A stretch of DNA of 61,953 nucleotides, filler included, from Bipalium vagum (Eukaryota), in NCBI GenBank assembly GCA_037834085.1. It is 3 parts of 3 records of this genome, joined end to end, with 100 filler letters (N's around TTAATTAATTAA, not from the genome) between each part and the next. Parts side by side here need not be neighbours in the genome. Positions count along the whole stretch, not along the records: positions 44,028 to 61,953 come from JBBMKC010046233.1; 2 more parts are not named here. One strand, 5' to 3'. The position numbers were made by a program, and so were the translations under genes. Below, one piece after another: positions 16,075 to 61,642 of the stretch (positions are counted from its first letter, which is position 1; every line of letters starts with the position of its first letter). The notes under the pieces were generated by a model that saw only the letters and a program-made list of their open reading frames with translations, did no database searches and had not been told where the DNA came from.

Positions 16075-16262
16075 TTTTAGTATAATAGTAACAATACTTA
16101 TAAACCTCATAAACATTTTCTAAGGTTTTTTATTATATTTAATTTTATTTCATTAAAAATTTTACTCTTTACTGATTAAAACAAAAATATTAAGTAAAAA
16201 TTGAAATTTAATGCCTCAATAAAAAAATTTTAATTATTCGTTAAACAAAGGATAAATTTTAG

Positions 16263-19504: not shown

Positions 19505-24640
<5,136 letters not shown>

Positions 24641-24666
24641 TGCTCAGAAAACAGATTTCATAGATT

Positions 24667-36100: not shown

Positions 36101-39100
36101 ATGTTTATCTTTTACAAAATTATTATTATATTGGAAATTATTCGACGAAATTGAAAATATGCCAAAAGAAAAAGGAGATACCCATCAATCATCATAAATG
36201 ATTTTCGGGGTGACATTTAAACGAATCGGAAAAATGAGATTATAAAAGTGAAATATTTAATTCTTTTTAACCAATAAGAAAAGACATTCAAAGATGAAAA
36301 ATGAGAAATCTCAGCCAAAACAGCGACTCCGTTCTTGAACAGACAATGGTATTATATTTGATATTTTAGAACAAACTTAGCGTATTTATCAATATCGATT
36401 TTTATAATTTATTTGAGACACAGTCTAATTTTTTTAGATTAATTAATTCTTTAAAATAATCAATGTTCAATAAACAAGCTTAGATAACAAATATTTATTT
36501 ATTAACAAATATTATAGAAAAAATCGATAAATAAAAAGTAAATTAGAAAACTAAAAAATCGACGATGATTGAATCGATCGAATAAATATAATTATAACAA
36601 AAAATCGATATATTATATCAAAAGAAGTGATAATGTAATAAATCGATTTACAGTGAAACTTGTCAAATTGAAAGATTGTTTTTAATAAAGATGAATGGTG
36701 TTTCCAACGAAATTTTAAAGATTTTCTTACAAATTATTTCTAAATATTTTTCACTGTATATTGATTTAACATAAATATATAAATATATAAATATATAAAT
36801 ATGATAATAATTATAAATCAATAAAAAAAGAATTAAGTAAATTATAAATATTATAATATATTATATACAAAGCAATCCACAGTGAAACTTATTCTTATTT
36901 TGAACGAGATAGAATGAAAATTATAATCGATCGATCCACGAAACTATAATTTGGAAACACAAATTTCGGTTTTATTGTCTCGTTCATATGCAATTTAAAC
37001 TGAATTGTTTATATAGATATTGATTATTTATTATTATTAATAAATGATACAATTTGATCAGGAGCCAAGTGAAAGTCAATATATAATAATAGTAAAATCG
37101 CTTTATAATATAACACGAAAAAAATTAATATTAAGCTACAGAAAAATAATAGAAAACTAATAATTAAAATAAAATTGAAAAAAGCGATAATAATAAACAA
37201 TACATTAATGATTAAAAATAAAATTTAAATGACGCAAAAATAATAAAAACAAACCTATGATCAAAAATATGACAATTTGAAAATAACTAATGAGAATATT
37301 AATAAGTAAAAATTATAAAAAATATAGATAATATTAAATTACAAAATAAAAAAATAAAAGAAAAATCAATATATCTTTAAATTAATAAAAATCAATAAAT
37401 AAATAATAATAATTAAAAACACAAATAAATTAACATATCTCTAAATAATAAAATAGTTATTACTGGATACATCAATAAATATATATGTAATAATAAAAAA
37501 GAAATATTGTTATTAAAATATCATTTAATGTAATAAATCGATTTAAATTAATATATGCAGGGGAAATATAAAAACGAATTACCTTGAAAAAGAGAAGTCG
37601 AACCAAATCGCGACCGATCTGAGGTATCTCTTGGATGCGCTGACGACAGGCCTCGAACTGGGAGGCAACGGAAAAGAAAACGGAAATGTAACCGCACACT
37701 CGAACAGGAAAGTCGGACGCGGTGCTGTTGCGAGTAATGATTGTCACACAACGACTGAAGGCGGCCTGCAAAGCCTGGATACCGTCTTGTCTACGCAACT
37801 CTTCGGCATTGAGGGCGCTGGTATTGACTGTGTGATAAGCAAGTTCTGCACAAGCCGCCAAGAGCGGGGTTTCTCGCTGGAAAAGCTGTTCGTCTTCGGT
37901 CTCGTTGAGAATGGTCTGGATCAACATTGGATAACCGGAATATTTGTGCATTTCAATTTCTGTTCAAAAAAACCAAAATCCATTACAATTTCCATGATGA
38001 TTTAAGTACAAGACGAACCTTTTTTACATCGTTGGAATAAAATACTCTGTGATTTTAGCAAGAGGAAAATGTTCTTCGGATCGGGCCCAGAGCACAATTT
38101 TGCGCGATTGCACAGAAATTGATAAGCACTATTGATTTTCTCAAATTGATCTCTGCCTTCCGGATTGCGGTCTGGGTGGTATTTCATTGACAATTGAAAA
38201 TAAGCTTTTCGAATGATGCTTTCTTCTCTGGTCCGAGATGCGTTATCATTGGAAAGATTTTCTTTGAACGTCAAATTGAGAATCTCGTACGCCTCTTTAA
38301 CGGACATTGATGGTGGTTTTTTTTCAATTTCGTTTTTCCAAGCTTGAAGAATGTCTCGCAACAAAGCCACCTAAAAGTCACATTTGAGAATTATGTTCGC
38401 ATTCCCATTGATTAGAACGGTCTTATTATCGAATCATAAAGAGAATTTTGTAAAAAATATACTTTTTGAAATCTTACTTTAAATATTACTAATAAAAAAA
38501 GATAAAGAAAAAAATTAATAAAGATTTAAAATAAATGGATAAAATAATTAAAAAATCAACTACAAATTAAAAGAACGTGATTTAAAAATTTGAAAAAGAA
38601 AAAAGTGAAGAACCTTAAATTAAAGATAACAATGATAACAAAGTAAAAAGAGATTTAACAATGGGATAAAAAAGTTTAGACTATTTTAAAAAAACCATTA
38701 AAATTCAAAATTCAAAAAAAGTATAAATTAAAAAAAAACACCAATTAAATAAATTATTTAAAAATCATTTATTTAATTTATATTTTTAAAATGAAAATAG
38801 TTTGTATTATTTGTAATATATAAGATATAATTAAAGTTTCACTTTTATAATAAACCAAAATTGGGTTTCAGGAAAAAGGTTGTTTTTAAACTGAAAAATA
38901 GGAAGTATGATAAAATGAGCGAATGATGAAAAGAAATGTGACAATGACGCTTTTAATTCTATATAAATGACCACTGTTTCTCAGTTTTATAATTTTCCCG
39001 AGATTTTTGATTATTTTAATACTTAATTCAATAAATAATATATTAAAATGTAACATACATATAGTTCAGTTTTGTGAAAATTAATTGAGTTATTGACTGA

Positions 39101-42100
39101 AAACTATTATCAATAATATTATTAAGCACTTATTATTATTTGTTTTTTATGACTATTATTTTTATTGTCCTTTTCGGTTTTTTTATTATAATTATTTTAA
39201 TTAATAAAAAGCTTAACTTCATTCATTAAGTTATTTTTGCTATATTTTTATTGCCTTCAGATAATGTTAAATGTTGGGAATATGAAATTATTTTCTCTGA
39301 TATATTACAGATTTTCAAATTCAATTATTACTTTTCATAAATATCATAATAAGAAATTCAAGTATTATTATTTGTTTATTCAAAAATGACAATATTCAAT
39401 ATATCAATAAATTTGGTAAAAGTAGGAAAATAGTATAAAAATAATAATTAAAATTTAAGAAATAATGAATTATTGATTAATATTTTATTATTATCAGTTT
39501 TAAACAAAATAATGTATTTTTTAGATAATTTACCAATTCCCTTTAAGATATTCACTAATGTCAATACGTATCATAATAAAAGTACCTATATAATCCTTGA
39601 TTGGTTTATAAAATAATGATTAATTAATAATATCTTTTATCATTGGAAATTAAAGGATTATATTATCACAATTGATTAAATGTTTTTTAAAACAATCAAT
39701 ACTTTTTGTGGAAAAGAGAAAAATTACCGGAGATCTGATAGGCCAGTCAGGGAATTTGACGGTGTCACAAAGGTGACGCAGGTAATAGCTGCCACAAAAC
39801 AGCTCGTTCTCCAGTTGCGGATAGCTGATGACCGGGATGGCCAAGTACTGATAATTGACACGGTTATTCGTTGGCAACCGCGGTGTGAATTCCATAAGAT
39901 GGCAGGCTATTTTTTCAATCATAAACCGTCTGAAATGGCGATTATTTTCGTTGTTTTAATAGAATTGCACAAATTAAAAAAGATTGATTGAAAAATCGAT
40001 ATTTTGAACCAGACCTCATTTCGCTGTTCCAAATCGTTTCCGGTGTGTCATAATCACCGAGGAAAATTTGTGCGAACTGATCAGAGGAGTGATTTTCCAG
40101 AAAACAGATCATGGACTCAGGAAGCATGTTACCCAGAATTGATCGCGACAAAATGTTCGAATCCATGTTGGCCTGTTACAAACACAAAACAACAATTTCA
40201 TCAACCATACCACGGCGAAATATATTCACAAAAATAAACTTGTAATCATTGAGTTTTTCCAGATATTTTTTTTTATTGTTTAATTTAGCAACTGACTAGT
40301 AATAATGGTAATCATAATAATAATCTTTATAATAAATAATAAATATAAAAATCAATAAAACTGATTTTAATTGAATTGGATTTTTAATCAAACATATTTA
40401 AATTTTGATAAAAAATAAAATTTAATATAGAAAATTTAATTACAGAAATAAATCTAATATACTAAAATAAATAAAAATAATCTTTCATCAATCAATAAAA
40501 TACAAATAATATATTTTAAAGGTTTGGTTATGATATTAACAAAGAAAGGTTTTTAAATTAATTTTTTTCTCACACAAATCTGAATTTTCAAATCAATTTA
40601 ATAAACAAACCAAAATTTTTTGTTTTTAAATTTATTGATGATTTAACTAAAACAAAATTAATTATTGATTTACTCTAAATTCAATAATTCTAATTAGAAC
40701 AAATAAAAAATAATATTTATTACATAGAATAAAGTGATAAATATCGCTTAAATCCAAATGACTTAAAACCCTGGGAGAAATTATAATTCAGAGACAAAAT
40801 TTGTCAACTAACAAAAATGAGATAAAAATGTTTAAAATAAAAGACGGGGCGGTTAGTTTTGAAGGGTGATTGATTTAATTTCATCGAAAAATGTATATTT
40901 TTTTGTGGATTAGGTGAAAATTTATAGTTAAAAAAGTCATTTCGTAGTTGACAAGTTAATTTCTCAACAACATGCCTTATATAAGGCGTGACGAGGAAAG
41001 AGTAATGAGGAAACCAATAACATAAAACTTATAAAAATGATATTCAAAAATTTAAATAAACATTATTTTATTGGATTTGAAGTTGACAAAGTCAATATAT
41101 TACTTGGTTCCACGATTCTAACATAAAATTTCGGGAAAAACAAAATAGCTTACCTAATGAAAAATAATATCAGACCTCCCCGATTTCGAACTAAGTCTTG
41201 CTAATACTAATTCAATTTAAAATATGATTCAAAGATTGCCTTTCTCCTCTTTGATCGACATAAAATAAGAATTAAGAGATTTTATGATCAATAATAAATT
41301 CAGCAATTCCGAAAGTGCCAATGAATTGTTTTATCCCCAATTCACTCACATATCACCGGATCTCAATATTAAAAAGCGTAACTTTAAAGTGATTCGATTG
41401 AAACTGTCCAGGGAAAATTTTATTTCTTTTTAATGTAAAAGGAAAATTCATTCAATTTCAATTTCATTATTAATTTTATTATTAAAAAATACTCAAATTA
41501 TTTAGTAATTAAAATCGATTTTAAAAAAATTATTTCATTTTCATGAATCTGATTGGACAAAAACAATTTTAAATTTATAGTTGATTTTTAGGTTATAATC
41601 GAATTAGAAATTTATTACAAATAATTCGTCATTATTTTGATACGATTTTCTAATTTGATCATGACAGAAAAAACCTTTTTTATCCACAAATTGAGATGAG
41701 ACTTTGAAATAATAATTTTCTTTTCCACTTTTACACATTGAATCAATTTTTAATCTAGACAGCTGTTGGTTATAATTTTTATTTCCTGTTTAATCTCAAA
41801 CATCGCAATTAAATAATAATAATTTTATGATCTTATTCATTTAATATATAAATTTAAATGAATAGTTTTCAATACAGAAACGACAAAAGACTTTATTGAT
41901 TTTACTGGGAAAACAGTTCAAATTATCAAGTTAATCTAAATAAATTTTCGGAGTAATGAAGGAATTCATAAACAAACTCAAATTATACGGTCGTCGAAAC
42001 AGGCCTATGACTTTTGACTGGTTTGAAAATGTTTGTGTTTATACATTTTGTTACACTTTTGATTTATCGAAATGAATATTAAATAATGATATTAATAATA

Positions 42101-42327
42101 AAAATAACATAAGTAAACGCACCAACCTCGTCGTTTCGAAAAGCCTGGAACATGTGAGTGATCTTGAGGAATTCGGCAATATTCAACAGGTTGCTGCCGA
42201 TATACATGAGTATAAAATAAAAAACACCGGTAATGTAAAGTCGAGATCGATAAGGGTTTTCGTCGAATACCATATTTAAAAGAACAGCTACTTTTTCCAC
42301 AAGAAACGGATCAAAAGTCAAGAGCAA
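27157..42327 (-). CDS. DNAJC13: DnaJ homolog subfamily C member 13 (RME-8), C-terminal ~1177 aa in 18 exons; 5' half beyond the contig end
   Basis: Exons 42327-42127, 40172-40015, 39929-39728, 38370-38019, 37959-37583, 35988-35809, 33794-33483, 33423-33307, 33201-32899, 32789-32690, 32622-32548, 32341-32141, 32078-31997, 30811-30616, 29903-29685, 29629-29489, 29391-29245, 27327-27157 all have GT-AG ends and splice in frame (3534 nt including TGA). J-domain [23 protein letters not shown] repeats ([24 protein letters not shown]), [24 protein letters not shown]-terminal [13 protein letters not shown]. Confidence 0.97.
27598..28700 (+). mobile_element. Mariner (DD34D) transposon, pseudogenised, in the last intron of DNAJC13 (antisense)
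   Basis: 5' TIR-like AGGTTGGTACATTAGTTCCCGCGTTTTT. Transposase with [40 protein letters not shown] (2nd Asp mutated to Asn), YSPDLVPTD with 34-residue spacing. Stops and frameshifts; 3' TIR not found. Confidence 0.93.
34246..34400 (-). mobile_element. 3' terminus of a mariner element
   Basis: Minus strand [26 protein letters not shown] (mariner C-terminus), then a TIR-like end CGAGAGCGGGATAAAAGTT preceded by TA. Confidence 0.75.
34430..35532 (+). mobile_element. pogo-family (DDE_1) transposon, 5'-truncated and decayed, intronic in DNAJC13
   Basis: [12 protein letters not shown] (NMDETP), [11 protein letters not shown]...[26 protein letters not shown] (IP.G.T..LQPLDV) over three frameshifted ORFs; ends GGCTTACTTTCGCGAAACTCCGG-TA. 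Confidence 0.85.
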
Positions 42328-43927
42328 CTGTAATGAAGGAAAAAGTGAATTATTCCTCAATTCAGACATAAATTATGTTTATTAAATAAATAAATTTTTT
42401 AATTGTTAATTTAAAAATCGATATTTTATTAAAGAAAATTTAATTATCAAACCAAATTAATTGATCATAATTTATTAATTAAAACAAAGACCTAATAACA
42501 TTTATTATATTTCTTAGACTAAAAATTCAAAATAATAATTTTTAAACCAATGAGAAATTTAAAATACTACATTAAAATATTAAATCAATTAAAAATCTGT
42601 ATTTTTCGATAAAAAATAATTTCTATATGGCCAGATTAATCAGAAAGGAATTAATATGAAGAGTAAATCTCTGGAAAATACGAATAATTCTCAATAAAAG
42701 ATTTTTCCAACGAACCCAAACAAGTGAGAAAGATTAATTAATCAATCCAACGGCTGGCCGAGTTCAAGGAAATGTTATCCAACGTCAGCCACCATTCTCC
42801 ACCCGACTTGTGATGAGAAAAATATCAATTCGATCGTGAGATTTAATTTAATTAGAAAACTTCGTCCCTGTGTCACTGAGAAAAAAGAACGAGTGCCAAC
42901 CAAATCGATAAAAAAATTTTTCCAAGTGAAAATTCAATATTTCTTTCGTAATCATTGAAAAATCTCAAAGCAATTCATCTTTACTTTTCAATAAATGTTC
43001 TAGTTTAAAATATTGATTTTTCAAAACGGAGAAATTTAAATGTTATTAAATCAAAAAGTAACCAAGAAAAAGTTATCGATGTCATTATTAAATGAACTTT
43101 GGTTTTTCAAACACCAAATTTATTTTGAATAAAAATACATGACACTGGTAGTATCATTTATTACAAAAATCAATGGATTTTTAAAAAGCAAAAGAGAAAA
43201 TACTTCAATTTGATTCACTTTTGAAAAAATATTTATTGATGTTTCAAAAAATATTTTGAAATGATAAAGAAAACTCCCCAGAAAAAATTTGATATACACG
43301 AATATTTATTAAACTAAATCAAGCGTTAATTATTTATAAAATCGATACTTCTTCCAATTTTAATAAAAAATATTTCAACACCTTAAATAATTCATATTTA
43401 TAAAGTCTATAATAATTTAAAATTTCTTAAAATACACTGGATCAATAATCTATTAATATTATTGTATATTGATTACTACATCATTATTTCTTCTGACAAT
43501 AATTATTGATTGCTACTTCATTTTTCTCTTATTGTTATTAATTTTCTTTTCTCTTTATTATTGCTTTCCATAAATATATATAATTTTTATATTGCTTTCC
43601 ATGATGGTAAACTGAAAAATTCCTTCTGATTTTAGCAAAACATTGCCCAATAAATGTATAATAGATATCAAATGGTTCTTAATAGGAAAGGAATACCAAT
43701 AAAATATTAGACGTACCAGACACATTAAATACTTCGTTTATGCCATAAACATAATCCTACGAATAATTCTTGTGGTCTTGATTTCCTGAGTTTTCCAAGT
43801 CCATAGATTTTTGAAATCATATTTTTGGATCTTTATGCTATTTGATACTTATACCAGGTTGAGTCAAAAGTCATTAGCGTTTTTATTCAATATATTCAAT
43901 TACAAGAATAACAAAAAAAATCACAAT

Positions 43928-44027
43928 NNNNNNNNNNNNNNNNNNNNNNNNNNNNNNNNNNNNNNNNNNNNTTAATTAATTAANNNNNNNNNNNNNNNNN
44001 NNNNNNNNNNNNNNNNNNNNNNNNNNN
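43928..44027. other. Artificial contig-joining linker (44N-TTAATTAATTAA-44N)
   Basis: Identical 100-nt structure to 18071-18170. Confidence 0.97.

Positions 44028-44096
<69 letters not shown>
44028..44096. repeat. (AAT)n microsatellite at contig start
   Basis: Direct observation. Confidence 0.95.
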
Positions 44097-44599
44097 CTAA
44101 TCATTGCTAACATCAATCGAAAAGGGACAGATATCAATTTAAATAGAGGACCATGTGAAAGAAAAGAAAGGTAATGGTGATTTGGTGTAATGAAGAAATT
44201 ATTTTACTATTCATAGGAGGCAGGCATTGTGTAAAGGAACCCCAAAGCTTTAAATGCTCAATTTGTCATTGCTGATTTAATTAAATTGATTAATAATCAG
44301 TTTTCGATTAATTAATTTACATTAATTAATTGTTATTCATCTTGTCATTGTTTAATTATAAATTGAATTTTTCGTGAGAACCGCCTTTGTTAATTGCTTT
44401 CTGTCTGTATTGGGCTGTCGGTTAAGTCAATGGGGGTTTATAGAGTAATGACAAAGAATAAAACGGGAATTTTTATTTTGAACAAATACAATTTATACGA
44501 TTAATCGATAATATAGTCACCATTGTTTTATCTGACTTCCTCCAAATTTTGCACAAGCTTGTCACTGTCTAGGCGATAGAACTCTGCAATAAGGGAATA

Positions 44600-44770
44600 A
44601 GGTCGACCAGAATGGATGTGGTCTTGAACACTAAACGCGAAAACCATTTTTGGGCTGTTCTGACCGATATAGCATAAACCCTATACAATATGCAAGTGTG
44701 ACGAGCATATTTGTTGACCTTGAAATCTGATTGTATAAAAGAAAGTTTCGTATCGAAAGTTTCATTCTCT
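44600..44770 (-). mobile_element. Mariner HTH remnant
   Basis: Minus strand IRNFLLY...AISVRTAQKWFSR...QDHIHSGRP across frameshifts. Confidence 0.7.
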
Positions 44771-47700
44771 TCAATCTGACTTCTGATTTTGACAGGTTGC
44801 CATGAAGGCTGTCATTCAATAGATCTGCGATTTCTTTCTATGTATAATCAGTATAAGACCGTATTCGCACCATTTGCACTTTGAACTCAAGTTGAGTGTT
44901 TGGCAAACAGTGCTCGGTGCGTAAGAATTGGGTCCTAAGGAAGCGTCAACCGAAGAAGAGGAATTACACAAGATTGAAATAGAATTTTTCTTTTCATATT
45001 TTTGGACATAAAACAGATTTTAGCGAATGGAATGAGTCGATGAAATGGTTTTCCAGTGTACTAAATGAAGATGAAACAGAAGTAAGAATAGGGAATGTCT
45101 AACAAGTAAAAACTGTAACTGGAAGCGGTTACTGTAAAAATATCAAGTGATTTTCTCCATAAGTACCACCTTTCGTCAACTATCTATAATAGTTTCTAGA
45201 TCTTCTTTAATTGATGGAAATAAAACGAACCTGAATTTCGTAAATACCGGCTTTGAGAATTAAAAATTGTGAAACGTTTCTCTGGGATCTGTTCTTTTCT
45301 ATTGACATTTTCAGTATCATTCAATAATGAAAGACCACATCGTTTCTTTGCTTTAATGCCATTGTCAACAATTTAATCACTACTTGGACTAAGATCGATT
45401 TCCCAATTATATCTCGTGACCTTCATTGGATATGATATTGACATCAAATATTATAAAGATATTAAAATTTCAAAATTAAAAACAAATCACAAAATATGAT
45501 AACTGAATCAATATTTATTTTAAATCATAATTTTTATAAAAAAAAATGAAATTTAATTATGTGCTTAGTGACAATTGATTATATTGACAAATTAAAACAG
45601 GGGTACGAGAACGGTAAAAATCCAAACTTTTAAATGTATGGTCTTTTCCTTTTACATTTTTCTTTATTTAATTTTTTTCATTTTTCATTTAAAATTAATT
45701 TTTATTTATGATAAAATATTAATGAGAAAGGTAAATATATTTAATTATATTTATTTAATTATATTTAATTATTTGATTAGAGAAACATTGTTTTAATATT
45801 GCGCAATTTAAGATGACTTTTGACAGAATAATATGGCAGGCATAAAGTGAGGAATTTTTTCAATTTAGTACATGTAGACGGAAGCAATTAATTACTATTA
45901 ATTAATTAATAGTAATGGCTGCAGATGCAGAGCCATTAGAAATAAAACGTTACTTATGAATTTTTTTCCCAAAAGGACAGGTAAAACAGATACTAAAAAA
46001 ATTTAATCTTATTACAAAATTTTAGCAATGTGAAGGACTTGTGGAGTAACCCGACCGGTTATTGCACTTCCTGTCATTGAAAGTGGTCGGTTTAAAGTGA
46101 CTCCTTTGGTACAAGGTATCCATACATTTATTGAGTAACTTATAGTTTAAGATAATAATAATGATTGCACTAAATTCTTTTCGTATTTTCATAATAATAA
46201 TCTATTTAATTTTTCAATAAGAATTTGTATATTGTAATGGTGCAGTTTTAATTTTGATCTCAGACAATAATATTCTATCAATACCGATTTTGATGCACTT
46301 TTTACCGTTTCACAGAATTTGTAAAAATGATGTTCATGATAATAGAAGTCGAATTAAGCTAATTAAAAATAGGATAGTTTCGCATTTATTATAAATGAGA
46401 AATTAGGGTGATATAAATGCCAAAAGTATGCTTTATTCTGTGCTCACTTAAACAGTGCTAAATGATTTTGATGAATTTTGATAATAGTTCAAAGTGAGGA
46501 GGGTCTGGTTAATATATTAATAAAAGTCTGGGTCTAATCAACGTTTATTGTCAATATAAATTTCGAACTGTACATTGAAATGATAAATTGAGATGCTCTA
46601 AAATATTTTAAAATTATAACAGATTTATGTAAACTGACAAAGATAAGATAATTTCAAATTAACCGCAGATGTTAAAAAATAATTGTATTATTTAATCTTT
46701 CTCGTGGTATGTCGTAATCTTGGGAAATGATTAACTTTGCTTAAAATATTTCCAGTTTTGTACGAGCTCTTTGGTTAGATCTCCTTACTTAATGAACTAT
46801 TCTTTATGAAAAAATAAATCCCATTATGATAATTGTGAGCATTACAAAGTTAAAAATAATTTAAATTAGTTAAAATACTTATTATCCCTAATTCGTCTAG
46901 TGCAACATTAGTGGTGGGGTTTTTGGATCAAGAATTGATCTCCGTTTATGAAGTCGTAAAATGAATATTTGAAGAACTTCTCAAAGCGTTTCAAATGAAA
47001 AACTCGATGATAGAAGATTTACAAGCAGCTTTCAATTAGATAAGGACAAATGAACCAGCGGAAAAAATGGTCAATAAGTTGTTCTCACATACGTGGGATA
47101 AGGATTTATTGTGAGAACATTTGTTGGTACATTGTACAAATGACCCGGAAGTTAAAAAAACTAACTCTGTATTTCGATAAATTAAATTAAATATTTTGAT
47201 TAATCCTACAAAAATTCTGACATGTAAAAATTTGGTGATTGTTCTTTCAAATGGTCTTTTCAAAGAGAAAATTATCTGTTAATGCATAAAGGAAATAGAA
47301 TGTTATGATCTGATGATCAGATCTGATTTCTCACTTCTTCAATAAACGAATTCCTAAAGAGACGGTTAATGGATTCTCAAGATAAGATATATGTGCCAGG
47401 TAACAGAATCAGCAGAGTCAATGAAAAAGAAGATATAAAACTTTGCTCATTCTGTTTAATCAATTTTAATTAGAGATTTTCAAAAGAACAGAAAACTCAA
47501 AACATTTACATTTTATGGTGTGACCTAAATATATTTTTGAAAAAAATTGATTGTTATTTTTGTCATCGAAAATAATAAAAATTAAATAAAGTTTAAGAAG
47601 TTTAGAAAACAAATGTTTGCTTGTAAATAAGAAACGCCTGGAGATTTGAACTAATACTTAATAAACAATGTATATAAATAAATAAACGCAATTTTAAACG

Positions 47701-49589
47701 TCATTCACGATAACCTCTATTTTTAAATTTTTCTTCAAAGATTGAAGAAATGGGGATCTGAATAATATATTTTTACATGACTTGGAATTAAAATAGAATA
47801 CGAAACAATGCCAAGGATAGCCAACAGCTAATGGTTCCGATATTTTAGTATAGATCGCGGTCATAAAATCAATTGGAACCCACACGAACTCTTTGGAAGT
47901 GTTTCGAAGCTCCTGAAGAGGATCGCAAAAGAGGCCTCAATCTGAATCAGCAAATGAAAGCTTATATCAGCTACATCATTTGCTCGAAGAAGGAAATGGT
48001 CAGTGAAGGAAAGCACTTCGGTGTTGACTTTACTATCCGAAAGTTAACAACTCATTGGTGACTTTTCAAATGCATCATGCTATTCTCTATCTCACTACAG
48101 AAAACTTTTTCTATCCAGATTCATGATCTCAATAAAATTACATGTTTTCAAAAAATTTAAATGCTTTATAACTTTTTTCCTGTAAAAGACACTGAGTTCA
48201 AATTTTATGGGTTTATAGGTTTAAAGACGCCTTATCTCTCAGAAGTAAAATAAATTTCAAATATGGTTTGGTTTCCAATATATAAATATTATTTTGAATA
48301 ATTATAAAAACTAAAACACTGATGCCTTCAAAATCTGTTGTTCAAGGAGTGCTTAGTCTTGGCTTCGTATTTTCTCATAAACTAGCTTCAGCCTCATGCT
48401 TCGTTCGGCATCTCGAAACTTTTCACCATATTTCACTCTGTGAAAGTCAAGCGGCTAAGGGAAAATACCTCTAACGTGCAAGACAAGTATGAAGAATTCT
48501 GATAAAAACATGGGACCAATCATAAAAGAGATAGGTGTCACGCAGGGCCATACTATCGCGAAACCTTAATTAAATAAAATTAATTAATAATATTGTTCTT
48601 AAATAAAAAAGAAAGTCGTTCATTGGTCAATTTGGATTTATTTTTCTATTTTATGAATTAAAAATTCTTTATCATTTTAATATCTATTTTGAATTTTCGA
48701 AACCAATAGTCATTGCACTGAAAAATTTAACGTGTTCATAAACTGCAACTGTGAAAGCTTGTAAACTTTATTTTATTAATCCAAATCCAGACTTAAATTT
48801 TTATATTATTAAACGTTACTCGGAAAATTTTCAAAATTAATATAAAAACTGACTTAAATGACTACGTTTTATGCGTGGATGTGATCCTTCTTAACACCAA
48901 CAGGCTATTTATGTTGTGTTAAAAAAGTATGTTGATCTACAACAATGGTTAGGGACCAAAAGACTTACCCTAACAAGACAAAAGCATAAAAATATATACT
49001 CAAAATAACGTTAATTACATTGCCTTTCTGATCATTGTATTCCGGAACAGAGGATAATGCACACATTTGAGATCTTGTAGAAGCCCGATCAATATGATTG
49101 CAGACTTTATGGCAAAAATGAAAATTGCAGGTTTCATCTTTCGGAATTATCTGTCCTGCCATAATAGCTGAAGTAAACATAATGTTATCATGCTCTAAAA
49201 CAGCTTACAGGATGATGTCTCGTTTTGTACCACAAAATTGATGATCACAAATATCTCTAACAGACATAATTTCTGAAACAAAACATTTCGATATATTATT
49301 GAAAAAATGTTACCAATAATAAAAAATGTCAATTTTTCTTTGCTTATTTTCTTCGCCAAAATTATTTTGACTGTAAAGTTCTATTTTAAATTATCTTTCG
49401 TGTAATATATTCGCATAATTAGCCTTTTTTGTTAAATATTGGTATGGGTTAGGGTTAGGGTAAAAAATAAATTGTAAATCGATAAAAGTGATTTCACTCC
49501 TCAGTCTTTTAATTAAACTTTTCCAGGGCTTTACTCACAAAATTTATTTGTAAAATTGATCCAATTTTCAAACCGTCGTTGGTACTAAA

Positions 49590-50050
49590 GTCCAATCATA
49601 TCCATCATAAAATCCATCATATCTTGATCACCTCTATCCTTCCAAAGAAAAACGAATAAATCAATTGTTTCCGAAATAGGCACATTCGTGAAAAAACTAA
49701 ACGCGTCAAATGATACCATGTGGTCTTTTTCGGAATTTTTCTCCTAATTATTTTTAAAACTACAAAATTCAAAGCTATCTTTCACCTCGCATTTCATTTG
49801 TAATAATGGTTTTACCAATTCGTCAATAAATTTTGCTATTTTGTGTTGGGTACAATTTTTTCATCGATAGAACTGGTCTTGTCGGACGATTATCTTTGTG
49901 TATTTTTGGTAATCTATATTATTTTGCCGGTTGTGACCCGTGACATGTTAATCGACTGGCTATTTCTTTTTATATGATTACCTTTCACTAGTTTTTTCAA
50001 TATTGAATTAACTCTTTGTTCATCTTTGATTGGAGTGGGTATGCTATTGG
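49590..50050 (-). mobile_element. Penelope-like element reverse transcriptase fragment
   Basis: HGSQPAK*YRLPKIHKDNRPTRPVLS (YGLPKIHK..P.RP), HKIAKFIDELVKPL, VKDSFEF, MVSFDAFSFFTNVP (SFDV.SLFTNVP): canonical PLE RT motifs. Confidence 0.85.
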
Positions 50051-51321
50051 ATTTTAAAAAGATTTTTTAGAGAATTAAGTGAGTATCCTGAATTCGTTCT
50101 AACTATTTATTAATCAGAGGGGTTTAAAATTAGCCCATCGATTTCCTTTGGCGTTTTCGGAGGTGTTTCAGTGGGTGATGATGGATAAATTGTTGATTGA
50201 GGGATTGGGTTGATTGCTGGAGGCACTCAATAGATATTGAGAATGGACACATTTTGTGGCATCCGCAATAGACGATTAATGCGGGTTTGTATGGAGCCAA
50301 AATGATGAAAGACCTTTTCAGAATATACACAAGATTATGCGCTGAATGTGGACAATTCTCTTTCTAATGAGAGACATTTACTGCAAGAATTGTTACCAAA
50401 ACTAAATGATGGTCCTAGGATTGGACTGGTTACCTCTTGGGAAGCTTCCACAAAAAGTTGAGGTTAGGGTTAATTCAAATAATAGTTTAAAAATGCGGAA
50501 CTCTACTTCACCATAACCAGACATAGCTTTCCAGATCTGATTTATTTGGCACCAAAATAGGTATAAATGCTTTTCAAGTTTACATGGCAGTTGTTAGTCG
50601 ACGAAAGTATAAAGCCTGGGTAACTTACTAAGCTTCTGACAATTTGACTTACCGTTTTAATTTTTCTAATTTACGATCAATAAAATTCATGTACAGTACT
50701 TTGTTTCACTAAAAGGATCAAAACTATAAAAAAGGGAGCACTGCAACATGACATGTTAATAATTTGTCTTAACAATTGAGTATGAGTTGTTCATTCATTG
50801 ACGTTTCGAGTACAACCATCATTACATCTGATCTCATCCTTTATTCATGGTATGCTCAGTAACATGTACATCAGAAATCCGAAACAGTAAATTTGAATTT
50901 AGTTTAAACCACCACAGTTTTCCGCATAGTTATGTTACAAACCGATCTACGTGACCCATCAAAAGTTAAATAATCTTCTTATAATAATAGCAATGTTGAG
51001 CCATTTTAATTTTAAACTCAAAATTAGCTTTTTTTAACACTGATTTGACAAAAATGTAAGAAAGCAGTTCACCTTTACTGCGCTTCAAACACCTTTGCTT
51101 TAATTCCAATAATGAAAACAAAAATTCACCGGTAACTTATTATATTGAAAAGCATATTATTAATGGACAGTTTTGATTGGATGCACACTGCATACAGAAT
51201 TAAATAAAATTATCTTTTGCCAATGCCATTTCAAAAAATCTTCTCACATACCTGAAGAAAGCACTGAAGTCCATTGTTTCATTTGTCAAAACATTTCGAT
51301 ATAATAAGTTATACTTTTCAA

Positions 51322-51631
51322 TATGAAAAAAGTTAACAAACAAGGAAGGAAATTCCCCTCGAGTTAACCTATGAACAACAAAAACGGAGGATTAGAAATT
51401 TTTCAAAAACTGTTAAGCAATCCAGTTGATCAACTGTCTATGAAACGAATCATCACTTCCGACAAGAAATCAATTTATTTTACTAACTATAGCAGGCAAA
51501 ATCAGTGGCTCGATTCAAATCAACAAGCTCTTATAGTAATAAAAAGTGAACGCTTTGCAAAAAAGATTCTTCTTTACTTTGGTGGAATTATGTATGAATT
51601 TGGAGCAAACAGGACAGATTTTCTTTTATAT
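51322..51631 (+). mobile_element. Mariner transposase fragment truncated by the GC-elevated island
   Basis: KRIITSDKKSIYFTN...QWL...KSERFAKKILL/WWN corresponds to mariner [13 protein letters not shown]...W...K...KK.MLC.WW. Confidence 0.75.
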
Positions 51632-54180
51632 TAAAGCGACCTTAAGGTCGCGTGCAGCCCAAAAATCATATCTATCCTTATTGGTTAGTCTCAACGGAGT
51701 GATTCCGCATTCACAGACTCTCTCTTCTGCGACCGCAACCACCTCCTCCCCCGTCATGGCTACGAGATCTTGCTCAACAGCCCTCAAACAACGAAGGCGA
51801 CCGATGACCTTTTCTCTCTGATAGCAATTAGTCGATAAAAGTCGCTTATTTATGATAATCCTAGCGACGGCAATTTTGAAGTTACGTGGAGCCTTACTGA
51901 TAAAAAAACCCTACAATATGTGCTCCGTGTTGCGCGATCTTAGACGCGAAAAGCATTGCGCGGTGTGATAAACTCTTTTTTGTGAGAGACCTTTTTCGTA
52001 ACTTCAGTTCGTTCTTCGTACTCCCGTTCTTAATTATTTTGACGAATTAGTCTGTAGTGTGTTCTGCGGACAACATTATGGTCTATCTCATCTATATGAC
52101 CTTCGTCTAGCCTTTCTGTCCCTTTCTCAATTCCAACCTTAAACTCATAGGGTTGATTTTTTACCATTTCCGCAGCAGGTCAACCTTCATCTACAATTTG
52201 GACAAGGCTCCGTAAAATTCCGAAATTGAATACTCGTTCGCTTATCTTGGTCCCTGTCCAGACAATCATACTTGATTTAACATTCACACAAGCCGTTACG
52301 GGTAATGCAATGACCTGTCTACTAGCCACCTCCTGTAATTTTTTAACTTTGTTGACAAGATCAGGTTCTGCACCCACATCTTTCAACAATTTAACAACCT
52401 CGGGCAATACAACTTGGAAAGAGTTGTCAGCAATTGTGACATCTCCACTTGCCCGGCAATGTTCAAAACCTCCTTTTCCAGCCACGTCCGTTGAATTTGC
52501 GGTAGCAATCTGTATGTTTGGCGTGCCGTCGCAAGCAATAATATCCCCCGTAAAGATTGTATTCGTTTGAGTGGTAGTAGCAGGGGTTTCAACAATAAGT
52601 TCAGAGTCGTTATCAACGATATACTTCTCTAACCAACGCCTCTCATCTGTGGGTAGCTGCTTCTGATATTGATCTTCTTCTCCTTCATGCATTGTGATAC
52701 GCGCAGTTACTTCTTCAAGATTCTTACCGAAAGTATCACTAAAGCTACAGCATGTTTAGTACGCGGTATTTTTACTTCAGGCTGGCTAGTAATAACTGCT
52801 GGAAGAGAAATCAGGTGCTCATCATTGTGCGCTGCTTTCCTTTGTGGTACATTTCCGACTGCACCCACTTCTTTAATCATTTTCGTTGAGGCGACTTTCG
52901 ACCGAGTATTGTCCGCCACGTTCCCGCCTCGCGCAATACTGGCCCCATAGACGGCTTGATGACGGACTTCCAACATCCCCGGAATGTTGGGAAAATCCCA
53001 TTCAGATGACAAATCACATAATAACGAGACGTCTTTCTCATTAAACCGAATATATTGCCAATTTTCAATTATAGGTGAAATTGACTGTTCCGATCGATAG
53101 TAGAAAAATCGCGAAGTTTTTCGACGCGAAAAATCCATTCCTTTAGGGTATTCTTAATAACACGTAAAACTTTCTGTTTCCACAGAGCCCCATTGCGTGC
53201 AAAAATACCCAATTTCTTGACTAGGTCGCGATCTGTTTTTTCACGCGTACCTGCCACTAGCCGTAATTCGCCAGTTGATGGATAGATGTTTACGTTCTCC
53301 AATCAAAAGATTTAATCCTCGAAAGTAATATTAGAGCCTTGTTTGTCAATAATATAATAACAAAAGGTGAAGATATCCTTGTAGTAGAACGGCTCTGTAA
53401 GAAAAAAACCGTCCGGTAGGTTCCCGTCCTGGATGTCAAATTGTATCTTCGTATTCGTTCGATACTTGTTCACTACCTTCTTAAAAGGTAGATCGAATTG
53501 AAACTTGTGCTGAAGTTCCAGCTCTGTGAGTGAATCACGCATGCTGATGGTTTTGCTGCGTTCGATGATTTCATATTATTTCTCTTCGCTCCACTTATTC
53601 TTATGCTCGCATTCATGGTTGAACTTAAGTGGTAGCATGTCCTTCGTAATATAATGAGTTAAGTCCCCCATTATATTCCAAACTGCGAGCAACTCTCGTC
53701 TTTCCTAGGATGATAAGTTTGTAAATATTTGCCAGAGCGATAAAGTGCAGTTGCTTTGATATCGTAGATACTGGCCTCGCCAACTGCACGCTCCTCAGAC
53801 TCCATAAGTCTAGCCACGTCCGGTGCATACAGGTTCTGTAGTACGGGATTCTCGTATATTTCGAGTAATATAGTATCGATGCGGGATCTAGCTGATCGTA
53901 AGCTAGTTCATAATTAGTAAGGAGAAGATAAAGTCTTTGCGCAACAGGCAAAGCCTCTAGGCCAAGAGGCTCTGAACATGGAGCGGGGGCAGCGATCAAA
54001 TACGCTGGGCTTCCCGAAAAATGTAAATTAATTTCGTTGTAGTTTAAGTTCATAAATAAGAATACGTGCTTGCAATACGTTCCAAGTAACAATCAACTCC
54101 AGGAACGGTACGCCAATTTAACCAATCTAGCGCATGAATATCTGAAGCCGAGTTTACAAGCTAGTACACGGCTGAACTAA
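51632..54180 (-). pseudogene. Intronless decayed ~850-codon reading frame of unknown family; candidate endogenous viral element
   Basis: GC about 40% by eye versus about 25% in the flanks, CpG-rich, no splice structure. The adjacent minus-strand ORFs join into one protein-like frame via about 6 frameshifts and 8 in-frame stops. No host-gene or transposon motif recognised. The viral origin is inference. Confidence 0.6.
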
Positions 54181-54184
54181 AAAG

Positions 54185-54637
54185 AAATGATTGAATTGGA
54201 TTTAGAACCACAAAACCACTTTTGTGATCCAATTTATGTTTAGATAATAATGATTTAGTTGAAGAAATGGAAAATAATGAAGACAAGAATAAAGTGATTA
54301 CAAAATTAAGTTTGCAAACAGTATTGAATTATTTTCATGAATTAAAATCATACGTAGTAAGTTTAGATAATCCTACAAGTGGTGACATTTTGTTCCTAAT
54401 GAATATTGAAAAAGTCAATAATAAGCAAACGTTAAACAACACGCACAAGACAATTATGCATTACCTTCCGAAGGAATGAAAAAATTGTATTATAAATAAA
54501 TATTTGGGGATTTTTAAAGAATTTTGTTATCTCTATTATTGTGTCATATTTTTTGTGCAATCATTTCCCCTCTAATTTTTGCCAAATTAAAATTTTTTCA
54601 AGGTTCCCGATTGCGGTAAATATTACAGGGTAGACTG
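54185..54637 (+). mobile_element. 3' end of a Tigger/pogo element
   Basis: Acidic linker then LSLQTVLNYFHELKSYV...HKTIMHYL (Tigger-like C-terminus); terminal ATATTACAGGGTAGACTG followed by TA. Confidence 0.65.
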
Positions 54638-55949
54638 TATATATAAATTAATAAATTAATTTAAAATATAAAAGCAATTTTTAATAATTTTGAAAAATAT
54701 TAAAATATTTTTGGATGTGTTCATTTTTTTAAAAAGTTCCTAAAAAACATTGACAAAAAATTTTTAAATTCTCTTTTTATTAATTAAAAAACTGAATATG
54801 AATATAAAATTGTGATGTTTTCGTTTCCAAAATATTTATCGATTTTCTTCGAGAAAGAAAAAAGAAGGAATATAGAAATTAATCTTTAAAATTTCGGTTG
54901 ATTGTTTTGTAATAAATCAGAAGGGTCTGAGACGGTTGAAGAAAAGAAAAAGAGCACACCATAAACAAAAGGGAATTCCACAGAAAAAAAAATTATTAAA
55001 TAAAATTTAGAAGTGAAAATTTCCAATGCTCCAAAATAAAATGGTTCAGAACGATTTCCATTATGTTAAAAGATCTCTTTGAGAAGCGTTCTAAATATAA
55101 ACTATCATATTCTGCAAAGACCACAACATCAACCTCTAATTGAAGAGTTGGTATGGGCAATAAATAATAATAATATTAATAAAAAAATGAATAACTCCTT
55201 TCAAAGCTCCTGGTTGCCGTTTATGCCTTCAATGTAAAATAATGTTAACATTAATAAAAGTCCTTTGCATCCTTGAAAGTAAAAGTCGGTTCCATTGATT
55301 CTGTAGTATGATCAAACGTTACCCTTTCAACCTTTAAAAAGTTCGATTTTTGTTCAATAATCATAAATTATTTTCAAGAAGTCTCGTTAAAATTGGCACT
55401 TTTTTAAATAAAATAATTATAAAAGTGAATTCCATTATTTCGTTTGTACAGAGCGTCAGTCGAAGAACGTTTTCAGTTCTCGAGAATTTTTTTTCAAAAT
55501 CGTTTTGAAAAATCTTCCGTCAGGAGCAGTTTTTATGATTCATTCAAACAAACCCAAGGTCAGCCAAAGACAATGAACATTATAATATTTTTCAATAAGC
55601 ATTTGATCTGGTAGAAAATATAAATTAAATCATTTCTCAGTTGAACCATAAATAATTATACTGTGACAAGAAATGCCAATATTCCATTGGTTCATTAATA
55701 AAATTATTTAACATTTTTCAAAAAATATCATTTAATGAAGGAATTTTTATTTTTGCAATTGATAAATTAAAATTTCGTTAATTTGTTCAAAAAATATTAA
55801 AAAGATTATTTTAAAAATAAATTTAGAGAAATATTTAAAAATAAAATAAATTGGCATTTAATAATAATTATAATATTATTATAAAAAACGTTACGCTCTA
55901 TATTTTCACTGATCCCTCGCCGATAGTTACAAACGTGTTCTTACACTAC

Positions 55950-57200
55950 AGACAAAATAACTAAAGCAACCTTTAACAAATGAAACAAATAATCAAAATA
56001 GCCTTTATCACACCACAGAACAGGATCCATTCCCAGTTTGTTTTTGAGGTGTAACCACTCTCCAGCTGGAGTTAATGAGAAAAAGTTTACTTACTTTTTA
56101 GTAACTCGTGGCTGGTACCCCAGATATTTGTCATACGAGTCCCTTATTTGGATAGCTTTTCACTAAAACTAAAACTTTCGTTAATGTCATTATTATTGAT
56201 TGAACTGTCGAAGGGAACTTTAACGTCGAGTACGTAATATTTGTGCTGCTTTTCATTAGTTAATATTCTTGGGAATAAATTTAGGAAGTCTTACCTTTAT
56301 AATGAACCAATGCTTCCCAACGTTGAAGGCTTCGTTAAGGATGTTTAGCATGTTTTTGTATCTGCATCGGACCTCTGGAATTATACTAATGCACTAATAT
56401 AATACGTGTGAGGCAGTCTCCTTTTGTTCTGCGCAATTTTTTGGCGTCTCCTCATTGACTAGTGATTTTTTGTGTTGATTGGTAAGTTGTTTGCACTTAC
56501 GTTTTGGGCAAATATCAGTGATCATCAACATGGTGCTTACCTCAGATTAAGTTACTGTTGCGCTTGGGGTTGAACGATAATTTTGAGAATGGAACCGAGT
56601 TCTGGTACAGAGCTCCAATGTATTTAGTGGTGGTTGACGAGACATGGTTGTATAAATGTGCACAGCTTTTTGATATTGTCTTTGTCGAACATGCTGGTTA
56701 CAAAATGCACCTTCTTAATTTCTGGGTGGTGTATCATATATTTTTAAGATATATCATATTCTCCCAGATATTTGATGGCCACCGTTAGTTTGGTAAAATA
56801 TGATTTTCGTAGTAGGGAGTACCGGCTTGGTTCACGAAATCGACCACTTCTTAGAAAATTTCGTGTTCCAGGTGTGGCATCGTTATTGTCTTAATAGGCA
56901 TTGAATTTTGACATCTTCGGGACACTTTGCACTATTGACTGTGTCTTACATTCATCGAAAGTCTTCATGATTCCATTTTCTGCTCATTAGGCGGAGGATA
57001 TGACTTTCTTTAACACATCATGTAAAGGTTTGTCCTTTACATTCATCATTCTAAAAAATTTTGCCATTTATACTTCATCTTTAATTGCTATTAATCCAAT
57101 TCCAATATTGCCATATAAGGATCCGTTGGTGCGATTGGAGATTGTGAGATTAGGTCTCTTATCTATTTTCGTATGGCTTTTATTGTAAATAAAACGTGTT
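55950..57200 (-). mobile_element. RLE-type non-LTR retrotransposon (NeSL/R2-like) 3' fragment
   Basis: Thumb-like LYGNIGIGLIAIKDEV..AKFFRMMN, zinc-knuckle remnant NCAEQKETASHVLY*C...RCRY (C..C..ET..H...C...RH) and endonuclease motif KYYVLDVKVPFD. Many stops. Confidence 0.7.
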
Positions 57201-59289
57201 GCGAAACCAGTCTCACTACTTTATTTAAAGATCTTGGATTTCAAAATCGAAATGCTTCTTATTAACAAATCCCTTCCGCCAGTGCATAATATTAGTAAAA
57301 TAGGTCACTAAGGGGTGTTGACGGCCTCAGTTTTTTTATCAACTGGAGTACCGAACTAAAAATCGTCAGCACCATCAACGACAACCAGGCTTGTGCCGCT
57401 ACAATAATATCTTGTCTGATGTGTCAACATTATATTCGATATTTGAACAATTTTATCATTTATAAATATCACTTAAGTGAAAAAGGTTCGGTTTATCGAT
57501 CGCACATTTCTCACCGAAAGAAATCCCACAAAAGAGATCGCACATTTATTATTATGTCTATCCCATTAATTTATTACCAAAATTGTTTGTATTGTTGTCA
57601 GCATAAAACTAAAACATAAGATCAGTAACAGCTCTTTCGAAATCTATGGTAAAGTTATCGATCTTATTAATAAATGTCGAAGAGATGGCCAACACCCATG
57701 GAAAGCCATTAAAGCCTATAAAACATTTGCACATCCAAAGTTAATTTTTGTCGTCCTAAATCATAAAACGGCAGTACCATTTGTTAAATGCTTAGAGAGT
57801 GTTCTGTGGGGATGAATATTAATGAGTTATTATTTCCAATGGAAGCAGTTAGAAAGCATTTCTCAATTGATAATTCGTGTTTGCCCAGTTCAATCGAGAA
57901 GATCGGCGCTGTTCTTTAATTCCATCAATGATGTTGATAATAATGGTCAGACTCAGCCCGACGAATAATGATAATAATAATAATACCGACGACATGATGT
58001 ACTTATGCATCCCTATCAATTCCAAACCGATCAAAGACTGTCAAAAAGTTTCAAATTGGGGACCAATAGCTTTCTTAAATGCCAGTTACAATATTTCTTT
58101 TTATAATATTCCTTTGATCAATAGAAATGTTATTATTATTTTTTTTTCATTTTTCAGCTGAGGAAATAAAGTTGGTTTCGTGACTAAAAACATTTTTATT
58201 GAATGTTTTTATCTTTTGCATAAAAAAGTTTATTTCAACGTGTGTCGCTATTGATTAACGATTGATAAATATTATTTTTTCAACAAATATTAATAAAATA
58301 TTAGTTAAAAGTTATTGAAAATCATGATGAAAAGGGAATAATTGAAATAATTCCATATTTCTACACCTTTTTATTGATTTTAGAATTTTTCACTATTTAT
58401 CCTTTTAAGCATTGCTTAACAATTTAATAAAAAATTGTTTTATTTATTAATTATTTAAGGACTAAAATTTATATTGCATGGCCAAAAATGAAATAATAAC
58501 AAATAATAAAAAAAGAAATGGAAATAAAACTTTAATTAAAAGCCATTTTGACAACCACTTCATTTACAGCTCAGTTGTCATTAAAATCATTAAACATTGA
58601 CAAGGGGCATGGACATAAAGCACAGGGCCAGTTTTAATGTATGTCAAAGCACAATGAATTCTGCTTCCCATGATTTCAAGTTCTAAAATATTCTTGGTCA
58701 ACCTTTATTACAACATTTGTCCTCCTTGTCCCGATCATACTTCCTCTGCCTTTCTTCTTTTTTTCAGCTGACAGTGGGATAAAGTGTTGTGTCAAATGAA
58801 ACAACCGTCAACCACAGTTTGTAGAGAGAAGGTTTTCTCAGTTGAAAAATGTTGTCTTCATAAGTGACAGAATGTGATCCTGAAATTTTATTGAACCTTG
58901 GATTCTATTGAATCTTTTCAAAATCTCGTCTTTAAAAGTAAACAGGTAACTTTGTTTACTTTGAAAATTTAGTCTCAGAAGTGCATTTTTTTGGAAAATT
59001 GTTTCGATAAAACAAAATAAAAAATTCTTACTACGGGAAGGTTTCAGCAAAGGATTGCGAATTTTCAAAGGTTATAAAACAAAACAAAGTGATTTTTTAT
59101 ACAACCATCCGTATGGGAAAAAATTCAAAGGTCATTGTCATGTCAGGTTAATTTGGTCTGACAACAGTAAATAATTGCATGCTGATTATTTTAAACATTG
59201 TGTATGATAAGCTCTAATCTAAAGTTAAGCATGGATTGGTCAACGGAATACAAAATTCTGTTAAATAGATAAATTATTTATTTAGCGTT

Positions 59290-60299: not shown

Positions 60300-60420
60300 T
60301 TCATAGTGCAGTCGCCGCAGAAACGATCCAGGAACTAATGACGAAAGAGTTAGATTGCTTAGAGCGAACAATTGTATATATTGATGACATTATGATATTT
60401 TCAGTAAGCTCAGAACCCAG
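60300..60420 (+). mobile_element. Ty3/gypsy reverse transcriptase fragment
   Basis: AAETIQELMTKELDCLERTIVYIDDIMIFS, with YIDD at 60377-60388. Confidence 0.75.
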
Positions 60421-60707
60421 TAAGAGATCTTGGGACTGAAGGTCTGCCTCTATGCTCAATAAATGCCGATCTTAAACTGAGCTAGAAAACGAAACTTTAC
60501 GTACAAAACCGTTTCACTTCAGCGTCGACCTCATACATTTCCGGTTCAAGAAGAGGGTAGTTAAAGAAGTCAATGTTTCGACTTTTTGACTGTGAAATAA
60601 TGAATTGATGGTAAGGCCGAGGCATCGTACCCACAACATGTCCTCCGACCATTATCAAATCTTTGAAACAATTCCTATGGTTCTCCAAAGGTTGAGGAAT
60701 AGGTCTA

Positions 60708-60890
60708 TCACAGGAGCAATGGGAGCCTTCTTCTTATGATATCCGTCCTTCTCATTGTCACCTTGATCTGTCGATCCTTGGTCAAGGTCTCTTCCAACAT
60801 CATGGACAATTCCACAGCCGCACAATTTTCATATTCAAGGTAGGCGAAACCCTTCCGTCGTCGTTAATCTGTCAAGATTGTTATTCTGTT
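60708..60890 (-). pseudogene. PABPN1-like RRM pseudogene fragment
   Basis: NRITILTD*RRRKGFAYLEYENCAAVELSMMLEETLTKDRQIKVTMRRTD aligns by eye to PABPN1 [22 protein letters not shown]...LDESLFRGRQIKVIPKRTN. In-frame TAA at 60864-60866; no RNP2 half upstream. Confidence 0.7.
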
Positions 60891-61021: not shown

Positions 61022-61607
61022 TCATCGAGATATGAGAAGTGCTTCGTTAGCCAGTGGAGGCTGCCAGACCCGGCCCTCATATTGCTTGGCGAATTGCTCG
61101 AAGTACATTCCGTCGACGGTCTTGCCGGTCCTGGTCTTCGCCTCCAGGTACAGCCCTGAACGGAAAGCATCAGAGAATAAACGAATACCGGTATGGACCC
61201 ACCAATATCGTCGTATGGAGGCAGGTATATCCTGCGGGAGCAGTCATCAATCGCCACGCCCAATTCCTTTTTCAGGGCGGCCGTGATAACCTGAGGCAGA
61301 GCTCACACCGGACAATCATTGACACCTTACCTTGACGTCGGCGAAGTTCGTGATGCCGATCCTGGGCAGGTTGGACTGGGTCATGAGGAACATCTTGCGA
61401 CCGTTGACGAAGTTGCTCCGGAAGCAGTCCTGTGGCGACGACGTTGTGTGATGAGGGTCATTGTGAGAACGGACTCACCTTGTAGTAGGGAAAGCCGATT
61501 CTGTCGACGAAGTCGGCAACGTCCTCCACGGACCAGTAGAGACAGCACGGCACCCGTCCGTTCTCGGCATCCTTCGACTGAACGCTAGTTTGGTCTGAAT
61601 CGGCCAT
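61022..61607 (-). CDS. SAMD15: SAM domain protein SAMD15-like, 149 aa, exons 61607-61479, 61429-61331, 61290-61203, 61155-61022
   Basis: Spliced product MADSDQTSVQSKDAENGRVPCCLYWSVEDVADFVDRIGFPYYK/DCFRSNFVNGRKMFLMTQSNLPRIGITNFADVK/VITAALKKELGVAIDDCSRRIYLPPYDDIG/LYLEAKTRTGKTVDGMYFEQFAKQYEGRVWQPPLANEALLISR*. Matches SAMD15 hallmarks (GFP.YK.CF..NF..GRK, SNLP..GITNF.D.K, DIGLYLE.K..TG). GT-AG introns of 49, 40 and 47 nt; AATAAA at 61003-61008. Confidence 0.92.
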
Positions 61608-61629
61608 TTGAAATTGGTTTCCAACTGTT

Positions 61630-61642
61630 GTCGCTTAGCAAC
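61630..61642. promoter_or_regulatory. RFX X-box motif upstream of SAMD15
   Basis: GTCGCTTAGCAAC fits the X-box pattern GTYRCY-N-RGCAAC, about 23 nt upstream of the ATG. Confidence 0.6.

Follow-up and report, generated by a model that had tools for sequence, protein, structure and literature searches.

What kind of gene left the 2.55-kb stretch that lies between two transposon remnants in the genome of the flatworm Bipalium vagum? The window, i.e. the whole stretch of DNA that was analysed (61,953 nucleotides from assembly GCA_037834085.1), contains at 51632-54180 a block that the initial annotation had described as a hidden foreign reading frame and a candidate endogenous viral element (EVE). 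To answer the question, we consider whether the block is coding, whether it belongs to the genome, and which source its anatomy and its relatives favour.

Coding content was scored by read-through dynamic programming, in which amino-acid composition is scored and stops and frame changes are penalised, using three sets of penalties. The best path on the minus strand scored -9.3, -9.3 and -6.7, and this score was reached by none of 100 dinucleotide shuffles in each set (z values of 7.4, 6.6 and 5.7). The plus strand of the block scored at the level of the shuffles. Against a general background the block reached a z of 8.7 and ranked first among the window's 62 stretch-strands; outside the block, no stretch exceeded a z of 4.5. 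Moreover, codon-position periodicity was strong (chi2 of 96.7, 6 df) over 780 codons, in pieces that had been selected for being open. The frame of about 850 codons that had been pieced together across frames thus corresponds to a genuine minus-strand coding signal (z of 5.7-8.7 against shuffles), and all eight stops reported earlier (53705, 53576, 53312, 53303, 52756, 52180, 52030 and 51940) were found in the frames named. The frame posterior generally agrees with the earlier path, but it is blurred at the switch points and favours another frame at about 52030-51900, where a path other than the earlier one fits. The block had also been called intron-free, and indeed its 100-nt bins (51630-54229) all have a GC content of 0.35-0.54, without any AT-rich intron-like gap. 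From the coding score, the eight stops and the absence of such a gap, we conclude that the block once coded for protein over some 850 codons and has since decayed, so that no full protein is made from it today. Substitution since the death of the gene is estimated from the eight stops at about 6% (range 3-13%), stop-bearing codons being skipped in the estimate. The flanking repeat copies diverge similarly (21/294 and 14/137 other letters).

The composition of the block gives little indication of its source. Its GC content is 0.425, compared to 0.283 in the remaining window, and no other 2.55-kb stretch of the window is as GC-rich. The elevated GC reported earlier therefore stands, but the elevated CpG does not: the observed/expected ratio is 1.15 in the block versus 1.03, and it rises to 1.83 elsewhere in the window. 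Over 780 codons the GC content of the block (0.428) is practically that of the DNAJC13/RME-8-like exons of the window (0.426). Codon usage differs between the block and these exons (p of 1e-5); host genes are as unlike one another in codon usage as the block is from host genes, and both GC and GC3 of the block lie inside the spread of the window's host genes. The exon-like GC and the lack of a CpG rise give no compositional support to a foreign origin. The sharp GC step at the limits of the block is that between coding and AT-rich non-coding DNA.

Read evidence was taken from the contigs of one public run (X1), which may be the source of the assembly. A single contig of 2760 bp covers 51503-54262 with 0 differences and 0 gaps, overhanging the left junction by 129 bases and the right junction by 83. 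Its depth is 23.5, compared to 24.7, 20.5 and 24.8 for flank contigs. The block is thus continuous with host DNA and has the depth of unique sequence, and the spanning of both junctions by one contig answers the concern, raised at the outset, that it might be a contaminant or a chimera. With 0 differences in the spanning contig, the stops and frame changes exist in the reads. All six frame changes of the earlier path step the same way and are also present in the run's contig; a mutational bias is a possible cause.

The flanks had been described as a cut mariner fragment and a Tigger 3′ end. On the left, the mariner-type assignment is backed by Pfam Transposase_1 matches with E values of 0.0022 and 0.0065, both under the curated cut-off; the summed contig depth there is 409-636, as in a multi-copy family. 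On the right, the repeat and its terminus were found, with a summed contig depth of 953-1862, the loose ends of two contigs before 54179, and a CAGT-type end followed by TA at 54613-54639, but no transposase gave a Pfam match there; we take this transposon to be pogo/Tigger-like, a label that comes from its terminus. Past either transposon, no coding signal was seen on the minus strand in 600-nt bins (z below 1.3; 54100-56200 and 49700-51400), and the interval 44028-59000 yielded no host exon. The block had been thought to be truncated at both ends. At the 3′ end the sequence does not show this: the stop of the last frame, at 51628-51626, sits barely within apparent mariner sequence. An A-rich 14-mer is present at the 3′ junction (minus strand) and is indistinguishable from mariner DNA. 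The repeats listed (20 of 52 direct families, 25 of 107 inverted pairs) include none that bounds the block.

Features of the block and of the window. Positions count along the window; E, expectation value.
Feature	Position	Strand	Remarks
Decayed intron-free coding block	51632..54180	-	~850 codons, 8 in-frame stops, ~6 frame changes
Longest open piece, 191 aa	52180..52755	-	No relative in protein, viral-contig, metagenome, family or plasmid searches
Weak macro-domain-like stretch	52429..52560	-	By-eye lead
Sister patch	52133..52210		988-bp contig, depth 22.6, 64/78 bases
Sister patch	52896..52944		1385-bp contig, depth 18.2, 42/49 bases
Sister patch	53583..53641		617-bp contig, depth 26.8, 50/59 bases
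Sister patch	53935..53975		522-bp contig, depth 17.8, 37/41 bases
Mariner-type transposase gene, internal fragment cut at block	51170..51631	+	Multi-copy; limits approximate
Multi-copy DNA transposon 3′ end, terminal repeat and TA	54180..54637	+	From depth and terminus
Broken Penelope-like reverse transcriptase fragment	49590..49960	-	1.7 kb from block; regex matches at 49713 and 49915, motifs presumably Penelope-like; no Pfam match for RVT
Short coding-signal stretch	48900-49500	-	z 3.5; 79-aa ORF at 48965-49204
Decayed sequence	56000-57000	-	No Pfam match; presumably resembles the 3′ endonuclease region of a restriction-like non-LTR retrotransposon
Gypsy-type RT fragment with YIDD	60330-60440	+	RVT_1 E 0.068
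Broken RRM-like stretch	60500-60863	-	No Pfam match; presumably resembles a PABPN1 retrocopy
SAM-domain gene	61025-61634	-	SAM_1 E 0.0006
DNAJC13/RME-8-like exons	29559-42836	-	DnaJ E 1.5e-14; gene presumed DNAJC13/RME-8-like
DDE_1-like transposase remnant	34473-35346	+	Weak or presumed
Mariner copy	28293-28748	+	Pfam
FHA-domain gene	23793-24643	-	Pfam
ASC/ENaC exon	16234-16599	+	Pfam
Tc1-like transposase remnant	6380-7446	+	Weak or presumed

Relatives of the block were sought in protein, family, genome and metagenome collections. Protein word searches returned no match at E of at most 1 among 3488 candidates (lengths 466-1486), and none at E 10 among 1467 candidates (lengths 488-2000) or among 113 candidates (lengths 105-335). 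HMMER comparison with 1.84 billion representatives gave 0 matches at E 0.001, using one of the three frames (about 320 of the 850 path codons). Taken together, the searches of the large protein collections covered the path codons apart from about 170 in the third frame. An exact protein look-up found none of nine pieces. Nothing came near the cut-off in Pfam, PHROGs or NCBIfam, the Pfam search covering the three whole minus frames, and the best match to PDB sequences had an E value of 0.76. No match was obtained in viral contigs with the block pieces as queries, in GTDB genomes, in plasmids or in Rfam, and the best phage matches had E values of 0.1 and 2. Flatworm virus proteins may be missing from the collections searched. 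One metagenome search gave 0 matches and another a single 35-residue match (L133), which we rejected because it is antisense to a long ORF. Regular expressions for RdRp, RT, protease, Walker A, CCHC, BIR, dUTPase and YxDD patterns found none in the block. The earlier remark that no RT, DDE or RdRp motif is recognisable accordingly holds for RdRp and RT patterns and for Pfam in the three minus frames. No hydrophobic stretch of transmembrane length exceeded a KD19 of 1.56.

Structure prediction was uninformative, and visual inspection added one lead. Single-sequence AlphaFold models reached pLDDT values of no more than 32.5 and 37.6, which is inadequate for comparing folds; Foldseek with these low-pLDDT models returned 0 matches at E 0.001, and the best VIA match (Z of 4.8, on a helix pair) is uninformative. 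To the eye, the 191-aa piece resembles the start of a macro domain at its residues 66-109, and a bacterial profile of this domain (PF01661) can be aligned, through its N-terminal motifs, with a stretch of 30-45 residues. However, our own HMM of 87 bacterial macro sequences scored this stretch at 1.4 bits, a value equalled by 47 of 1000 shuffles. The glocal score was reached by 4/300 shuffles with model positions 3-130 and by 64/300 with the whole model, for which it is no better than shuffles. Comparison by hhalign gave P values of 0.003-0.011, with 0/60 shuffles in each mode, and a probability of 4%. BLASTP with Escherichia coli YmdB gave an E value of 16, and Pfam gave no match to PF01661. 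We treat the stretch as a lead and not as a finding, because the hypothesis was chosen after looking. A macro domain, if real and divergent, would point to the replicase of a positive-strand RNA virus.

Copies of the block were sought among the contigs of run X1 at 80% likeness, a filter excluding some records. Five contigs fit the block at this level, namely its own and four short partial matches with 82-90% identity over 41-78 bases (227 matched bases altogether, in one run), each with a chance expectation of at most 3e-5. The depth of the four contigs is similar to that of the block, and the 30-letter loose ends beside the patches resemble, by eye, the adjoining window bases. The block therefore has diverged sisters. 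From their lengths and offsets the four partial contigs could represent one or two loci. Outside the short patches the sisters are below 80% identity. All of the listed differences in the 52133..52210 patch (3/3; 1 in 27 by chance) affect the third base of a codon in the block's frame, and one of them lies in a codon that is a stop in the copy of the window. With a decay of about 6%, a living parent or copies of the same burst should show about 87-97% identity across extended stretches. Among the contigs of run X1, some records being filtered out, no long copy reached 90%, and no parent gene near-identical to the block was found at 80%. A processed pseudogene with such a parent, which the initial annotation had named as one of the outcomes that would overturn it, was thus not encountered under this filter. 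Since the sisters lie beyond the decay of about 6% and differ from the block, where differences are listed, at third positions, they probably diverged for the most part before insertion, while selection acted at the protein level. Sisters that are diverged and codon-biased would also be expected of old retrotransposon subfamilies or of a host gene family.

Our preferred reading, to which we give a probability of roughly 0.5, is that the block is an endogenous fragment of an unnamed non-retroviral virus. Since no homologue is detectable, the viral origin is inferred from anatomy. The part of the EVE proposal that describes an integrated, intron-free, decayed sequence of no recognisable family is upheld; its foreign and viral part finds no viral homologue, and composition is that of host exons. 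Against a viral source we count the lack of a viral relative and of a hallmark motif in the searches above, and a GC content equal to that of host exons. If the source was viral, its gene would have been under protein-level selection before insertion. The viral RNA may have been reverse-transcribed by a host retroelement and the piece captured at a break in transposon-rich DNA; alternatively, the first ends may have been deleted later along with parts of both neighbours. Neutral decay would have followed insertion, and diverging relatives of the virus would likely have entered the genome more than once. Any present role would be that of a putative small-RNA (piRNA) source.

Known EVEs offer a close anatomical parallel. 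In the reports on Armadillidium vulgare (PMC4231630) and on the non-retroviral integrated sequences of Aedes (PMC5497376), EVEs are likewise partial intron-free ORFs with stops and frameshifts, present in several diverged copies, with no bounding repeat seen and in a transposon-rich setting. In Armadillidium, EVEs with stops and frameshifts and without target-site duplications are described as products of independent insertions (PMC4231630). In mosquitoes, EVEs are reported to be enriched near transposons and in piRNA clusters, lying mainly beside LTR elements (PMC5497376); the direct flanks of the block are DNA transposons. A further difference is that these EVEs were found via homology to known viruses, whereas the block has no detectable homologue.

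Flatworm viruses provide candidate sources. A survey reports 115 novel flatworm viruses, mostly new at the family or genus level (PMC9241645). The tricladiviruses (SmedTV and relatives), toti-like dsRNA viruses of flatworm hosts with a long, fast-evolving ORF1, are one candidate, the likeness being one of published description (10.1101/551184). The best match of SmedTV ORF1 to known capsids is reported to have an E value of only 1.5e-7, and SmedTV was reportedly not found in S. mediterranea assemblies (10.1101/551184). Endogenous densovirus NS1 sequences of Platyhelminthes are a further parallel, being likewise chromosomally integrated in flatworm genomes (PMC13055364); however, NS1 keeps a conserved ATPase domain, and the block has neither a Walker A pattern nor a Pfam match. 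In the literature searched, subscription papers apart, densovirus (DNA) EVEs of flatworms were found and no report of an RNA-virus EVE. In a more specific version of our preferred reading, a host virus lineage absent from all searched collections inserted into the germline repeatedly and left both the block and its sisters, perhaps from the replicase region of a positive-strand RNA virus carrying a highly divergent macro domain. We regard this version as doubtful.

A less probable, although serious, alternative is that the block is a decayed piece of an unannotated part of a Burro-like giant LTR-retrotransposon polyprotein, or of another transposon accessory ORF, the sisters being old subfamilies. 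An intron-free orphan ORF with diverged sisters amid transposon debris fits this explanation, and a Gypsy-type fragment with YIDD is present near 60377 on the plus strand (E 0.068). Planarian Burro ORF1 measures 4,873-5,140 aa, of which named domains fill about half, Burro/GYPSM1 likewise being a long intron-free ORF with unannotated stretches, and decaying Burro fragments with stops and frameshifts are described in Dugesia japonica (PMC6431247). However, neither Pfam, run on the three complete minus frames, nor the patterns for CCHC, BIR, protease, dUTPase and YxDD gave a match over the 850 codons of the block, a result to be read with the fact that a fragment from an unannotated stretch of Burro would lack named domains too. 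Burro is described in thousands of copies (PMC6431247), and the flanking transposons have depths of 400-1900, whereas no long copy of the block was found at 90% or more. The YIDD fragment, moreover, is 6 kb off and on the opposite strand. Compared with the published description of Burro/GYPSM1, the block was found to have neither a domain of the Burro type nor an LTR, and no close family of high copy number was detected.

We consider it improbable that the block belonged to an old, lineage-specific family of intron-free host genes and died recently, or that it is a retrocopy with a lost or filtered-out parent. Its GC and GC3 are within the range of the window's host genes, its sisters at unique depth could be living paralogues, and an apparent second retrocopy is present at 60.5-60.9 kb of the window. 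However, no parent at 90% or more was found among the contigs of run X1, the host exons of the window measure about 500 bases or less, no homologue was detected in 1.84 billion representatives with the one frame searched, and neither a clear poly(A) nor a bounding repeat is seen. Finally, horizontal uptake of a gene from a bacterium or another cellular organism, or else contamination or a chimeric join, would explain an intron-free sequence without a host homologue but is very improbable: nothing was found in GTDB, NCBIfam or plasmids, phage E values were poor (0.1 and 2), the sole metagenome match is antisense, and a chimera is contradicted by the contig that bridges both junctions at host depth, barring an artefact common to run X1 and the assembly.

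Should the version with repeated germline insertions be correct, the block would be part of a fossil record of viral dark matter, detected via a decay signal and without homology. Fossils of unknown viruses are missed because EVE surveys depend on homology. The small family of diverged, homology-free decayed ORFs could provide a profile with which to seek the living virus in host transcriptomes, and the same family could serve to test piRNA-based viral memory. A Burro-like origin, by contrast, would make the block an ordinary transposon remnant that contains a domain without annotation. In both cases the kind of element is already known (EVE or transposon debris), and the block and its family are unnamed.

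The wider tract around the block contains Penelope-like, Gypsy-like and other remnants, under labels that are partly presumptive. The stretch at 48900-49500 has one weak Pfam match, under the cut-off. From the N gap (43928-44027) up to 59000, the DNAJC13/RME-8-like gene showed no 5′ exons; its start may therefore lie in the N gap, or the scaffold may be misjoined. The block itself was considered as the missing 5′ part of this gene and rejected, having no Pfam or HMMER match. The SAM-domain gene has a GC3 of 0.69, far above that of the other host genes of the window.
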